From a virus (Duplodnaviria > Caudoviricetes): a stretch of DNA of 25,971 nt. The notes below the pieces were generated by a model. The model was not told the DNA's origin. It saw nothing but the letters and a program-made list of their open reading frames with translations, and made no database searches. The position numbers and the translations under genes were made by a program. The stretch lies in IMG/VR virus record IMGVR_UViG_3300005805_000423, positions 1 through 25,971 of that record. One strand, written 5' to 3'. Shown here piece by piece: positions 7,935 to 22,981 of the stretch (position 1 is its first letter; every line of letters begins with the position of its first letter).

Positions 7935-10427
7935 TCAAGAGAAAAAACTACTCAAACTGCCTTTGCGCTCCGCTTGCCATCCAATGCATTCTAGCACGTT
8001 TTTGATGGGCTCAAAGAAACTCTTTTCAAATTGTAGCGTATAGTCAATGTATTTGTCAAGATTCAATTCCTTCGGCAGTTGTTGAAAGAATGAAATGACA
8101 TTTTCACGAATTGGATTTGGTGTCTTCAGGTAGATAAACTTGATCTTTTCACCTTCCTGAATAATCGGATACTTGTGCTCCAGATTGTTTTTACGAATGT
8201 AATAGTTGTAAAGCAACGCACCACGCACTTGAATTGGTGTGCCCTTCTGGTAAATGTCAGCAGCACTACGATACTTCTTCAGACCATTACAACCGCGAGG
8301 GAATGCAATGTTGAGATAGTTTTGCTTCTTAGTGTCTTCCTTGATTTCATTAATGAAGTCAAGCACATCATCATTTGTTTTGGTTACGATGATACGATAT
8401 GCTTGCTCTAGTTTGTCACGAAAGTAAGCGGGAGTGGATGAGCGAGCAGTTTCCATGCCACAGATTTTCATCTTTGGTTTGGCATAACGCACACCTTCAC
8501 TATCCCATACGTTGAGCACATAGCGTTTTTTGGCGGTCCAGAAACCACGCTCAGCGATATTCTCTCGCTTCATCTTCATTTTCTGATCGTATGCCTTGAG
8601 GTAGTCTGCCAATTCTTGGTAAGAACTTTCAATAAACTTCTCAAGTTCCATCGCACAGACCTTATCAAGGAACGTAACAATGCTCTCATTAGTTTTCTCT
8701 CTTCCTGAGAATACCTTGTCCACCAGCGGGCCCAGATTAAGATACATAGAGTCAGTATCAGAAGCAATAACATAATCAGCACCATCAGTCTTAAGGATTT
8801 TATTTAGATATGCATTCATTCTATCGCCAATCCAGCGAATGGAAAGTTGACCAGAAAGAGTGATTGCCTCAGCAATTTCTAGTTTGTAATAACGAAAGTG
8901 CTCGTTACCGATAGCACCATAGGCAGAGTTAAGTTGAATCTTACGCGCCATCTGAATGTTATTGCAACGAGAAATCTCTTTTCTCAACTCAATCGTTGGA
9001 GTCTTCTCATACTGCTGTTTAGCAGCAAGCATCTTCTTCTTATAGATGGTGCGATCCTCATAGATCTTCTCCATCAGTTTAGGAAGGAAACCCTGATACT
9101 CTGTGGTGTAGTGGGTGCCGTTGGCACACAGAGTCTCCCCTACGAGGTCGCTGGTATCAAATGCCTTATCGAGTAGCATGTCAACGTTGACGCTGCTGCG
9201 ACGAGGCAGGAGGGTCTCTGGAGACAGGTTATACTGCATGATGAGGTGAGGATACAGCGAGTTAAGGTCAAACGAAACTACCCAGTCATACATTCCAGGA
9301 ATAGGTTCTTTTACATAAGCGCCAGCATACTTGGCATCTTTAACACTATCTTTCTTAGGAGGAATGACAATACCCATCTTCGCCAGATAGATGAAGATGA
9401 TGTTATCCCACATACGCACCTGAGAGTAAACATCTTCATAGTTTACTTTGGCGTCGTATGCCATAGTAAATGCCAACTCAAGAAGTTTCATCTTGTCTTC
9501 CAGTTGGTCAACAAGGCGCACGTCGATGATGTTATACTTGACAAATTTATCCCAGTCTTTGGTATAGAATTCTTTGAAAGTATCAAACTCAGAGTGGTCT
9601 AGTTTCTTTGCATCCAATTCAACGGAAGCAATATGATCGAGACGATATGACTCTTGATTAGTATAAGTGAATTTCTTATACAACTCCAGATAATCCAGAC
9701 AAGCAACGCCAGGAATATCATACGCAATCTGCTTACGACCTTTAATATAAATCTCACGCGATGAAATTAGTTTCCAAGGCGACAGAAGTTTAGTATGGTC
9801 TTCTCCCAAGACTCGATCCATACGACGGCAGATGTATGGAATATCGAATAGTTGCACATTCCAACCAGTGATTACATCGGGGGTATTCTCCTGCCACCAT
9901 TTGAGGAAGCACGAAAGGAGTTTCGTCTCATCGTTACAATGGATGTAATCAACCTGTCGGTCTTCATTCTTGAAACTCTTTGATCCCCAGACAGTGATGC
10001 GATTTGTAAAAGAATCACGGATAGAAATAAGGAGAATCTCTTGGTCTGCTGATTCAATATCAGGGAAACCATTCTCGGCTCCAGTTTCAATATCCAAAGT
10101 AAATGTGCGAATGAGAGAAGAGTCGAAGCGAATTTCGTCATCGGGATATGCTTCGTTGATATACTGATACAAGTATCTAGTGTTTCCGTGAATTTCAAAT
10201 CCCTCTACGCCCTCATACTGATTGATAAATTGCCTACAATCATTAATAGAGCCTGGGCGGACTTCCTTAAGGAAACGACCATCCAGACTCTTATGATCTG
10301 TCTGCTTGTTAGCAACAACAAACAAACTCGGATTGTAGTTTACACGATACTGCACACGCTCACCATTTTCATAACCACGAACGAGGATGCGATTCCCCGC
10401 TTGCTCAATATTCGTATAAAACTTCAT
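7935..10427 (-). CDS. g43: Family B DNA polymerase gp43, uninterrupted
   Basis: Exo I DIET, Exo II GWNVQLFDIPY, Exo III YNIIDV, SFDLNSLYPHL, KIQLNSAYGA, SDTDS, KKRY. Confidence 0.97.
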   Translation of the reverse strand: MKFYTNIEQAGNRILVRGYENGERVQYRVNYNPSLFVVANKQTDHKSLDGRFLKEVRPGSINDCRQFINQYEGVEGFEIHGNTRYLYQYINEAYPDDEIRFDSSLIRTFTLDIETGAENGFPDIESADQEILLISIRDSFTNRITVWGSKSFKNEDRQVDYIHCNDETKLLSCFLKWWQENTPDVITGWNVQLFDIPYICRRMDRVLGEDHTKLLSPWKLISSREIYIKGRKQIAYDIPGVACLDYLELYKKFTYTNQESYRLDHIASVELDAKKLDHSEFDTFKEFYTKDWDKFVKYNIIDVRLVDQLEDKMKLLELAFTMAYDAKVNYEDVYSQVRMWDNIIFIYLAKMGIVIPPKKDSVKDAKYAGAYVKEPIPGMYDWVVSFDLNSLYPHLIMQYNLSPETLLPRRSSVNVDMLLDKAFDTSDLVGETLCANGTHYTTEYQGFLPKLMEKIYEDRTIYKKKMLAAKQQYEKTPTIELRKEISRCNNIQMARKIQLNSAYGAIGNEHFRYYKLEIAEAITLSGQLSIRWIGDRMNAYLNKILKTDGADYVIASDTDSMYLNLGPLVDKVFSGREKTNESIVTFLDKVCAMELEKFIESSYQELADYLKAYDQKMKMKRENIAERGFWTAKKRYVLNVWDSEGVRYAKPKMKICGMETARSSTPAYFRDKLEQAYRIIVTKTNDDVLDFINEIKEDTKKQNYLNIAFPRGCNGLKKYRSAADIYQKGTPIQVRGALLYNYYIRKNNLEHKYPIIQEGEKIKFIYLKTPNPIRENVISFFQQLPKELNLDKYIDYTLQFEKSFFEPIKNVLECIGWQAERKGSLSSFFS

Positions 10428-10430
10428 GCG

Positions 10431-10820
10431 TCAACCCACAGTCTTCTGGTAGTATTCTAGCACAGAATAGGAGGGATCCGCAAGTGTCAGAATGTCTTCT
10501 GCCCTCAGGTAGATCTGACTTTGGTTTGTATACTTTGGAAATTTTTCCAAAAGAATATAGTCTGATTGAGTAACTGTAACTTCGTTACCATCCTTGTCGA
10601 TTTCTTTATCAATGCTTTCACTAATAAAGAGAGCATCTGGATTGCGAATACTTTTATAATCAACATTAGAGTGATCCCAATAAGTTAGGTCAGTCACTCT
10701 GTAAGGATTAGTCAAAAGACATTCAGGGCTTTCTTCCCTTTCTTCAATCCCCGCTATCAGATACTCCTGATTCTTCAGAAGAATCATTTGAATCACTGGT
10801 TGATACGGTGTCGTCGTCAT
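10431..10820 (-). CDS. Conserved hypothetical, Sm-like fold candidate
   Basis: ILLKNQEYLIAGIEE..CLLTNPYRV..FP..ILTLADP..LEYY pattern; GAGG SD upstream of 10820; usual position before g43. Confidence 0.75.
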   Translation of the reverse strand: MTTTPYQPVIQMILLKNQEYLIAGIEEREESPECLLTNPYRVTDLTYWDHSNVDYKSIRNPDALFISESIDKEIDKDGNEVTVTQSDYILLEKFPKYTNQSQIYLRAEDILTLADPSYSVLEYYQKTVG

Positions 10821-11118
10821 TTAATACCTCAGCAAATCGATCTAAGTAAATTTCAAGAATGTTTGGTTCAACATCACCAATTGCAACTACAGTTGAATAT
10901 GGCACCTTATACTGAACTTCACTAGAATAAGGTATCCACTTACTAAAGTTTACATTGTATTGAACTTGATCCTGACCACCATCAGTAGTTGGAATCATTG
11001 TTAAAATATATGGACATCGAAGAATTAAACAAATTCCTTGTCCTTTGTCGTCTTTTAATTCTCCGACTCCAGCGATTATCCTTTCGCCAGATTGAGTCAA
11101 AATTATTTTAGGATCCAT
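10744..11118 (-). CDS. Conserved hypothetical, Sm-like fold candidate (124 aa, start MDPKII)
   Basis: Start moved to ATG 11118 (TGGAGA SD, promoter upstream); LTQSGERIIAGV..LRCPY..WIPYS..VVAIGDVEP pattern. Confidence 0.78.
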   Translation of the reverse strand: MDPKIILTQSGERIIAGVGELKDDKGQGICLILRCPYILTMIPTTDGGQDQVQYNVNFSKWIPYSSEVQYKVPYSTVVAIGDVEPNILEIYLDRFAEVLNDDDTVSTSDSNDSSEESGVSDSGD

Positions 11119-11140
11119 AATTCTCCATACACTAAAAAAT

Positions 11141-11169
11141 ATTATACCATAAAAAAGAAAATAGGGCAA
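11141..11169 (-). promoter_or_regulatory. Sigma70-type early promoter TTGCCC-N17-TATAAT with extended -10 TG
   Basis: -35 at 11164-11169 inside the terminator stem, -10 at 11141-11146; would drive the Sm-like genes and g43 operon. Confidence 0.8.
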
Positions 11170-11195
11170 GAGCTGATAGTTGCCAGCCCTGCCCT
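11151..11195 (-). terminator. Rho-independent terminator after hsp20
   Basis: 12-bp stem (one G-U, one bulge) at 11163-11195 followed by ATTTTCTTTTTT. Confidence 0.8.
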
Positions 11196-11225
11196 TGATG
11201 CAGCGACGATATTTGGGTTGCCCCG
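11151..11225 (-). ncRNA. Candidate ~70-nt late small RNA (5' GCAA-tetraloop hairpin, AUAUCGUCGCUGC linker, 12-bp terminator stem)
   Basis: AATAAATA late-type promoter at 11230-11237; GGG-GCAA-CCC; stem AGGGCA-GGGCUG/CAGCUC-U-UGCCCU then U-tract; no RBS-led ORF inside. Confidence 0.45.
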
Positions 11226-11228
11226 AGA

Positions 11229-11714
11229 TTATTTATTTACTGTATTTTCACCAGGGAAATTTGAATCTCGATCTTCTGTTAAAAACTTTGGGTCGAGAGA
11301 TCTCCCAATAGTATACGTTGTTTTCTTCTGATGATCTGGAATGATTTTCTCCAATGAGATTGTTAGTAAACCATCAGCAAAATCTACAGAGGATACTCTG
11401 ACATCATCTGCGAGTTGCCAACTGTGTGAGAATGAACGTTTGGATAAACCCTTGTGGAGATACTTTCTTTCAGAATCTGATTTCTGAGATTTAGAGGTAA
11501 CTCTGAGAATGTTTTGTTCTGTAGATACTTCAATCTCCTCTGATTTAAATCCAGCAAGAGCGACTTCAATTTCGTAGTTAGCTTCATCGTTTTTGATGAT
11601 GTTGTAAGGGGGATAGTTAGTATTGTGACCAGACATCGCATCTAGTCTATTAAAAATGCTTTCTAATCCAACCCCAAATGGTGTATAGACATCCCATGTG
11701 TAAGCGTTTGTCAT
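11229..11714 (-). CDS. hsp20: Small heat shock protein Hsp20 (161 aa, start MTNAY)
   Basis: NYPPYNII, IEVALAGF, YLHKGLSKRSF, DGLLTISLEKIIP; AAGGAGA SD before ATG 11714. Confidence 0.95.
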   Translation of the reverse strand: MTNAYTWDVYTPFGVGLESIFNRLDAMSGHNTNYPPYNIIKNDEANYEIEVALAGFKSEEIEVSTEQNILRVTSKSQKSDSERKYLHKGLSKRSFSHSWQLADDVRVSSVDFADGLLTISLEKIIPDHQKKTTYTIGRSLDPKFLTEDRDSNFPGENTVNK

Positions 11715-11720
11715 TTTATT

Positions 11721-11765
11721 TCTCCTTAATAAGCGAGAGTTTGTATAAGACCCCGAAGGCGTCTT
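11721..11765 (-). promoter_or_regulatory. Structured hsp20 5' leader: cUUCGg hairpin plus ROSE-like SD-sequestering hairpin
   Basis: AAGACGCC-UUCG-GGGUCUU, then UCUC-G-CUU-AUU-AAG-GAGA containing UCGCU opposite the SD. Confidence 0.6.
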
Positions 11766-11787: not shown

Positions 11788-11813
11788 ATAAAAAAGGGAG
11801 TGTGGCACTCCCT
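11788..11813 (-). terminator. Rho-independent terminator after regA
   Basis: AGGGAGTG-CCA-CACTCCCT followed by TTTTTATT. Confidence 0.85.
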
Positions 11814-22561: not shown

Positions 22562-22981
22562 TCAAGATTTGTTATATATCTCTTCTAATAACTTCTTAGC
22601 TTCTTTAATAGATCCTAGATAACCCTCATGTGACTGGGGGTTTTGTCTTTTTGTATTAGATTTTTTTTCTTCTACGTTTCTTTTTTTATACTTTGTTTTA
22701 TCTTGTAGGTGGTCTTCGTAGCAAAGTATTAGTTTTGGATCTAATTCAACCATTGTAATAATTTGATCTCTGGGAATCACAAACATATTTTCAAATGTTG
22801 CATTCATCCAATCATCAAACACAAGACCTTCTACAATAAACTTTCCTTGCTTTTCTTCTATTTTTTCAACTAATCTAGGTTCTAATAAAATGATAACATC
22901 ATCATTTGGATCGTAACTGACCTTTGCTACGATCTCTTCACCAGAAGTTAATTTGATACTAGCGTAAAATTCTTCTTCCAT
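22562..22981 (-). CDS. Conserved hypothetical, Sm-like fold candidate
   Basis: FYASIKLTSGEEIVAKV..P..WM..IITMVE and C-terminal GYLGSIKEAKKLLEEIY; usual position between uvsW and g55. Confidence 0.82.
   Translation of the reverse strand: MEEEFYASIKLTSGEEIVAKVSYDPNDDVIILLEPRLVEKIEEKQGKFIVEGLVFDDWMNATFENMFVIPRDQIITMVELDPKLILCYEDHLQDKTKYKKRNVEEKKSNTKRQNPQSHEGYLGSIKEAKKLLEEIYNKS

Follow-up and report, generated by a model that had tools for sequence, protein, structure and literature searches.

The window, by which we mean the whole stretch of DNA analysed here (a contig of 26 kb, 25,971 nt), belongs to a T4-like phage with the gene order of cyanomyoviruses. Pfam matches and reading of the translations place on it the end of gp23, uvsY, uvsW, gp55, gp47, gp46, the sliding clamp and its loaders, regA, hsp20, gp43, uvsX and gp41. 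The nearest cultured relatives of its hsp20 product are found in Synechococcus phages, at ~66% identity. All parts of the locus that follows this gene lie on the minus strand, and the features that concern us are these:

11229..11714, minus strand: hsp20 small heat-shock gene (Pfam HSP20, E 1.1e-17), the usual neighbour upstream of the RNA
11230..11239, minus strand: two overlapping TAAATA late-promoter boxes (from the sequence), the downstream one (11235-11230) leading to a predicted +1 at 11224
11151..11224, minus strand: predicted late small RNA of 74 nt, its ends estimated from folding, conservation and pairing limits
11200..11224, minus strand: 5' arm antisense to host 5S rRNA, from complementarity to cyanobacterial 5S
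11163..11195, minus strand: hairpin whose stem covaries and whose apical loop (U-G...C-A closing pairs) is semi-conserved, from folding and alignment
11151..11161, minus strand: U-tract of the predicted intrinsic terminator (from the sequence), kept throughout the alignment
11141..11169, minus strand: sigma-70-type promoter TTGCCC-17-TG-TATAAT (10/12 matches, extended -10)
10744..11121, minus strand: Sm-like protein A, 125 aa, acidic (Pfam Sm_like, E 1.3e-4, 22.5 bits, below cut-off)
10431..10820, minus strand: DUF6561 protein B, 129 aa, acidic, a probable Sm-like paralogue (Pfam DUF6561, E 8.9e-15)
22562..22981, minus strand: Sm-like protein C, 139 aa, between uvsW and gp55 (Pfam Sm_like, E 1.3e-9; PHROG 471)

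Upstream, a terminator-like hairpin (11795-11813, minus strand) after regA separates this gene from hsp20, and hsp20 itself is preceded by a structured leader (11712-11764, minus strand) in which a hairpin is followed by a stretch possibly covering the Shine-Dalgarno site; the leader gives a weak Rfam match to freshwater-2 (E 4.1).

The TAAATA boxes occupy 11239-11234 and 11235-11230 and share bases with the hsp20 stop codon (11231-11229); NATAAATA is the published late promoter of cyanomyoviruses (PMC2984593, accessible sections). Five bases past the second box starts GGGGCAACCC (11224-11215), followed by the unpaired stretch AAATATCGTCGCTGCATC, a hairpin of 13 pairs with a 1-nt bulge (11195-11163) and the U-tract (11161-11151). 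An earlier note on this DNA had described a promoter at the hsp20 stop, an unpaired stretch, a stem and a U-tract, and all of them are indeed there, the stem having 13 pairs; the sigma-70 promoter at 11169-11141, which overlaps the hairpin's 3' arm and is oriented towards the Sm-like genes and gp43, had escaped it. The folding z-score of the RNA is -3.15, with none of 200 shuffles equally stable, and the hairpin, which a simple terminator scan of the window did not list, is likely the terminator stem and possibly a protein-binding site. Reading the seed within the arm as a coding stretch for three arginines was dropped, there being no start codon past the predicted +1. Metatranscriptome contigs come only from relatives, at 85-95% identity and with small word shares, and such contigs show neither transcript ends nor level.

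At the gathering threshold of Rfam 15 the window gave no matches, a 5S gene included (best local E 0.78), and 17 related loci gave tRNA only, so that the family is missing from this collection. Its conservation behind hsp20, which the earlier note had mentioned, proved to be real: seed and hairpin occur in 61 of 76 usable hsp20 loci (41 of the 52 distinct ones), with L004, L047, L059 and L075 left out of the hsp20-locus and flank analysis as too short. We estimate that the promoter-plus-seed pattern occurs in ~3000 viral stretches, and one variant of it matches 302 cultured phage records, at one place each, many of these being redundant isolates and one, from a Listeria phage, a chance match. 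A pattern free of the promoter retrieved 120 loci, 117 of them distinct and usable, among which TAAATA lies at most 40 nt upstream in 112 (background 3.4%) and exactly 9 nt away in 82, while the remaining five loci without TAAATA have TATATA. The spacing from the late box to the seed is thus fixed, and it is kept even where hsp20 ends hundreds of bases off, whereas the spacing from the seed to the -35 box varies; the -10 box stands 16-18 nt past the -35 position in 106/117 loci.

Covariation of the hairpin, which the earlier note had proposed as a check, was found in the inner stem of 69 aligned sequences: column pair 35-50 shows 40 double changes and 1 break, and column pair 36-49 shows 14 and none. 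The score was reached by 0/500 shuffles and fell in slid registers; the aligned sequences had been chosen partly for the loop and the U-run, a bias that favours this result. Two false extractions (L058, L162) and six split variants were left out of alignment A3. A covariance model of the family, R1, scores positions 11156-11215 of the window at 53 bits, the window itself having belonged to the training set. The data support the earlier note's suggestion of a late gene for a discrete small RNA, with a single-stranded seed that is conserved. Since TAAATA and a plain terminator without the seed stand after hsp20 in several phages, that arrangement alone is no proof of a functional RNA; some phages with the RNA elsewhere still have it at this place.

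Variants of the element were also seen. In the six split ones (L155, L184, L186, L359, L369 and L380) the conserved loop hairpin is distinct from the terminator that follows it, and a -10-like box often lies in the interval. Seven others (L092, L160, L163, L188, L282, L377 and L378) bear short inserts past the seed that can fold back onto it in differing registers, and these inserts might gate access to the target. After hsp20 in L006 (2486-2530) and L058 (881-920) the seed is present and the hairpin missing, by deletion or assembly artefact, and in L018-L021 an inserted ORF, preceded by a TATAAATA box, takes the place of the RNA. Two gamma-proteobacterial places that we take to be C4 antisense RNA loci carry the loop string UGGCAAAAUCCA. 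They are alignment flanks, the two seen among the 11 occurrences of the string in supplement file 4 of PMC2864571 (a source available in part), and the loop may be a wider hairpin module. A search for cellular copies in a species-genome collection gave 13 pattern matches, three of them full elements surrounded by AT-rich, phage-like sequence, while the others resembled chance hits; the full ones (L412, L414, L419) sit in bins labelled Thermoplasmata, Acidibacter and Psychromonas and are probably mis-binned phage DNA.

Fifteen cultured genomes were searched with R1, and eight have one strong copy each: S-PM2, S-H38, S-CREM1 (whose copy was in the training set), ACG-2014e, ACG-2014f, Syn9, S-RIM44 and, weakly, S-CREM2. 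No RNA was detected by the model in the other seven, six of them cyanophages (HTVC008M, P-HM2, P-TIM40, S-TIM61, P-SSM2, S-CRM01 and S-SSM7; five also checked with the pattern), and the TAAATA box is missing at its expected place in the ACG-2014f and S-CREM2 copies. Among the eight positive phages only ACG-2014f has the RNA behind hsp20, and the neighbours vary. Elsewhere the RNA lies in the hli-psbA island (S-RIM8, P-SSM7, Syn19, ACG-2014d), near psbD (S-CAM9) or after hsp20 (S-SM2, S-SCSM1, S-SCSM2R). Uncultured loci with 800 bases of flank are more uniform, with hsp20 upstream in 56/56 and an Sm-like gene just downstream in 54/56. As judged from these placements, the RNA is a mobile single-copy unit.

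The Sm-like genes had led the earlier note to propose that a ring of these proteins, possibly a hetero-oligomer, binds the U-tail of the RNA and promotes pairing of its seed, to which 5S could now be added as partner. Phage Sm-like proteins are already published (PMC3710371, PMC12152347), and binding of U-rich RNA is known for rings of both Sm and Hfq (PMC3710371). Sm-like family membership is supported for two of the three proteins: relative to the curated cut-off of Sm_like (PF16243, 29.4 bits), C lies above (38.5), A below (22.5) and B is unmatched, and A, whose most likely start is the ATG at 11121, has a profile match to PDB 3BY7 (E 0.0036). AlphaFold2 models A as strands plus a C-terminal helix (pLDDT 82) and B as all-beta (pLDDT 80), so the former is not the helix-free product that had been described. 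Proteins A and C match in sequence the pentameric Sm-like family of cyanophages, to which 3BY7 belongs and which is already known, and the modelled layout of A, with its terminal helix, is like that described for the cyanophage pentamer, while B differs from it by an extra hairpin and by giving no PDB sequence match; this hairpin is the modelled form of a conserved ~45-residue insertion relative to the DUF6561 profile. The relationship of A and C to 3BY7 and the downstream gene in the 54 uncultured loci speak for a ring that binds the RNA, and distance between the genes would be compatible with action in trans. The linkage is inconstant, however: RNA and Sm-like genes lie at least 28 kb apart in S-PM2, S-H38 and S-CREM1, and P-HM2 combines four DUF6561 matches with the absence of the RNA. 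Moreover, the two have separate promoter classes, the Sm-like genes having the sigma-70 promoter of their own, all three proteins are acidic (pI 4.05, 4.36 and 4.99), and a duplex of 18-23 pairs may need no chaperone. We therefore regard an sRNA-Sm ribonucleoprotein as quite improbable; most likely the Sm-like genes are adjacent by position and belong to another transcript, early or middle, with a role of their products in trans possible.

If the seed is a guide, its complement should be sought in phage and host, as the earlier note had advised while naming no target. No shared target emerged within the phages, where a complement of nine bases was found in five genomes without a common site; among the 30 of 32 phage matches that were looked at, homology linked just two, which lie in a single gene of two close phages. 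For the host, an alpha-carboxysome carbonic anhydrase was found in 5 of 101 cyanobacterial genomes, and 31 genomes of that family, taken to be picocyanobacteria, were searched; another family was rejected as host because its low-GC genomes are without alpha-carboxysome markers. Raw counts (24 matches of the seed complement versus 59 of the reversed control) are below the control, so that only recurrence at one locus is informative. Such recurrence was found: 18 of the 24 matches, from 13 of the 31 genomes, fall at one homologous place in the 5S rRNA gene, Rfam confirming 5S in all 12 loci submitted and the other six being assigned by visible sequence likeness, while 14 of the 31 genomes had no match and were left out of further examination. 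The conserved single-stranded seed has its complement in host 5S rRNA.

In the window, the arm is antisense to this rRNA over a run of 18 pairs, 15 of them Watson-Crick, between 11217-11200 and 5S nt 65-82, and 11224-11220 adds five pairs with nt 88-92. The latter identify the small 5' GGG-GCAA-CCC hairpin of the earlier note, whose sequence is present, as part of the anti-5S arm and complement of helix IV. Seven of the 12 distinct 5S sequences allow all 18 consecutive pairs (duplex -44.7 kcal/mol), and co-folding gains -6 to -14 kcal/mol over separate folds with three 5S sequences, in a model that takes no account of loop E or of bound proteins. The site, placed by alignment, is what we take to be the 5' strand of the arm formed by helix V, loop E and helix IV. 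In other bacteria ribosomal protein bL25 covers the loop E region; it was not found in five of five host-family genomes of unreported completeness, in a search whose control matched 8/14.

The match between core seed and 5S is circular, because it was searched for, and positions outside the pattern were therefore tested. At positions -7 to -2, 467 of 473 cells within the predicted transcripts pair with 5S (329/335 without position -2, which is constrained by the extraction), whereas upstream of the predicted +1 the same positions do so in only 274 of 523 cells. The drop speaks for the pairing as well as for the predicted start. Segments of 50 nt anchored only on the hsp20 stop pair with the 5S site in a run of at least 12 in 40/51 cases, against 6/152 coding control segments at any site. 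The variation also fits RNA wobble, with A or G opposite host U (120/121 at position -4) and C or U opposite host G. Two seed positions depart from this pattern: position 9 is A opposite a host C in 12/166 elements, and position 7 is G in 92/166, where the opposite 5S base is G in 10/12 sequences and C in 2/12 (phages and hosts not being matched pairs), which means that the sample contains too few hosts with C or that the pairing tolerates a G-G mismatch. The hairpin loop could also pair with the 3' end of 5S, runs of at least 6 being present in 123/166 elements, but this would need an opened terminator and is not claimed. On this comparative evidence the virus probably pairs its RNA with host 5S rRNA, and the partner that the evidence supports is 5S rather than the Sm-like proteins.

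These results also bear on two readings in which there would be no separate trans-acting RNA. The overlap of a terminator-like stem-loop with a sigma-70 promoter in an intergenic gap recalls the PeSLs of phages RB49 and phi1 (PMC2839356), and it holds in most copies of the element, so that the unit could be a DNA cassette of that kind, its likeness to 5S being left over from captured host DNA or due to chance. However, PeSLs are multi-copy recombination cassettes, with neither late promoter nor conserved antisense arm in the accessible part of their description (PMC2839356). The unit studied here is single-copy (one strong copy in each of the eight positive genomes), its seed keeps a fixed distance to the late box and a variable one to the -35 box, and its substitutions preserve RNA wobble pairing, not DNA identity, with pairing ending at the predicted +1; we consider such a cassette very improbable. 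Alternatively, the anti-5S arm could tether messages to ribosomes in cis, being carried by hsp20 mRNA as a 3' tail or by late read-through messages as a 5' leader. This would suit the constant hsp20 of the 56 uncultured loci and a hairpin that would also end hsp20 transcripts, but seven of the eight R1-positive cultured phages have the unit elsewhere than behind hsp20, among varying neighbours, the spacing to the late box holds with a distant hsp20 end, and 5S complementarity stops at the predicted start, which makes action in cis improbable.

We favour, with a probability of about 0.6, a stand-alone RNA of T4-like cyanophages, likely late, which likely pairs with 5S rRNA in trans and would hinder its entry into new 50S subunits or destabilise it. 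Polymerase directed by gp55 would start 5 nt past TAAATA, as the conserved spacing suggests, and stop at the hairpin and U-tract to yield an RNA of 55-75 nt. The unpaired 5' arm would nucleate on the non-canonically paired loop E strand of 5S, free of bL25 in the hosts tested, and then extend into helices V and IV, where complementarity is observed and pairing in the cell is presumed. The opened 5S arm could not reach its native fold, and late ribosome building in the host would be curbed. Interference with 5S is favoured as the outcome because overexpression of chloroplast AS5, an RNA antisense to 5S, lowered 5S stability and polysome association (PMC3017836, available in part). Given pairing, we put hindered entry or destabilisation of 5S at roughly even odds. 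Two points speak against this scheme: it gives no role to the conserved hairpin loop, and with 5S blocked the late translation of the phage itself could suffer.

Because that loop is conserved even apart from the terminator, the main rival has the RNA dock on the mature 50S subunit through 5S, as an adaptor or guide, while the hairpin loop recruits a protein to modify, cleave, protect or redirect ribosomes. The two-part anatomy of antisense arm and conserved loop would fit such docking, as would the persistence of the loop hairpin away from the terminator in L155, L184, L186 and L380, the hosts tested in which bL25 was not found, and a tolerated mismatch at seed position 7. Nevertheless, no partner protein or guide box was identified, and the long pairing with helix IV in the clade of the window would unfold the 5S arm, which should be harder in a mature subunit, so that we hold docking to be unlikely. 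At a more general level, we think it somewhat probable that a late RNA invading the loop E arm of 5S, an arm exposed because the hosts are without bL25, is widespread among T4-like cyanophages, and that its conserved hairpin loop, possibly together with an Sm-like ring, remodels or commandeers ribosomes; it would then be a viral RNA effector directed at rRNA.

Trans-encoded base-pairing sRNAs of bacteria have a 5' single-stranded seed, a terminator hairpin with U-tail, their own promoter and short partial complementarity to the target. All of these are found in the phage element, whose promoter and terminator are conserved and whose unpaired seed is complementary to a conserved 5S site. To our knowledge the targets of such RNAs have to date been mRNAs or other sRNAs, whereas the recurring complement here is a ribosomal RNA. 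Phage examples of the class have been reported (PMC12197685, accessible part). AS5 also shares with the phage RNA complementarity to 5S and a cyanobacterial lineage, yet it is encoded in cis, on the strand opposite to the host's own 5S-trnR region (PMC3017836, in the part available). The phage RNA, which in our reading acts in trans, is a short one whose complementarity spans 12-23 nt at a single site, and a late promoter and a terminator belong to it alone; the window contains no 5S gene, and the complement is confined to the 5' arm. T4-like cyanophages have other non-coding RNA elements, namely wcaG, manA, glnA, PhotoRC-II, abiF and CfrI, the latter being a cis-antisense RNA at psbA (PMC12197685, same part). 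No known Rfam RNA, abiF included, matches the element, and its S-CREM1 copy (8289-8344) lies apart from the four published there (9745-10567 and 164232-164330).

A virus-encoded RNA pairing with host 5S rRNA was not described in the literature searched, including the accessible portions of PMC9964418, PMC5931967 and PMC12801897. The seed is absent from the supplement parts of PMC2864571 and PMC10690425 that were searched; the supplement of PMC5737381 and the 2016 Syn9 transcriptome may list the RNA as a candidate. Given that the element is present in cultured model systems with known hosts (Syn9, S-PM2, S-RIM8 and S-SM2), pairing with 5S is directly testable. If it is true, ribosomal RNA would join the targets of phage small RNAs, the element would offer a natural probe of what the loop E arm of 5S contributes to ribosomes that have no bL25, and the finding would bear on how abundant aquatic viruses control host translation late in infection.
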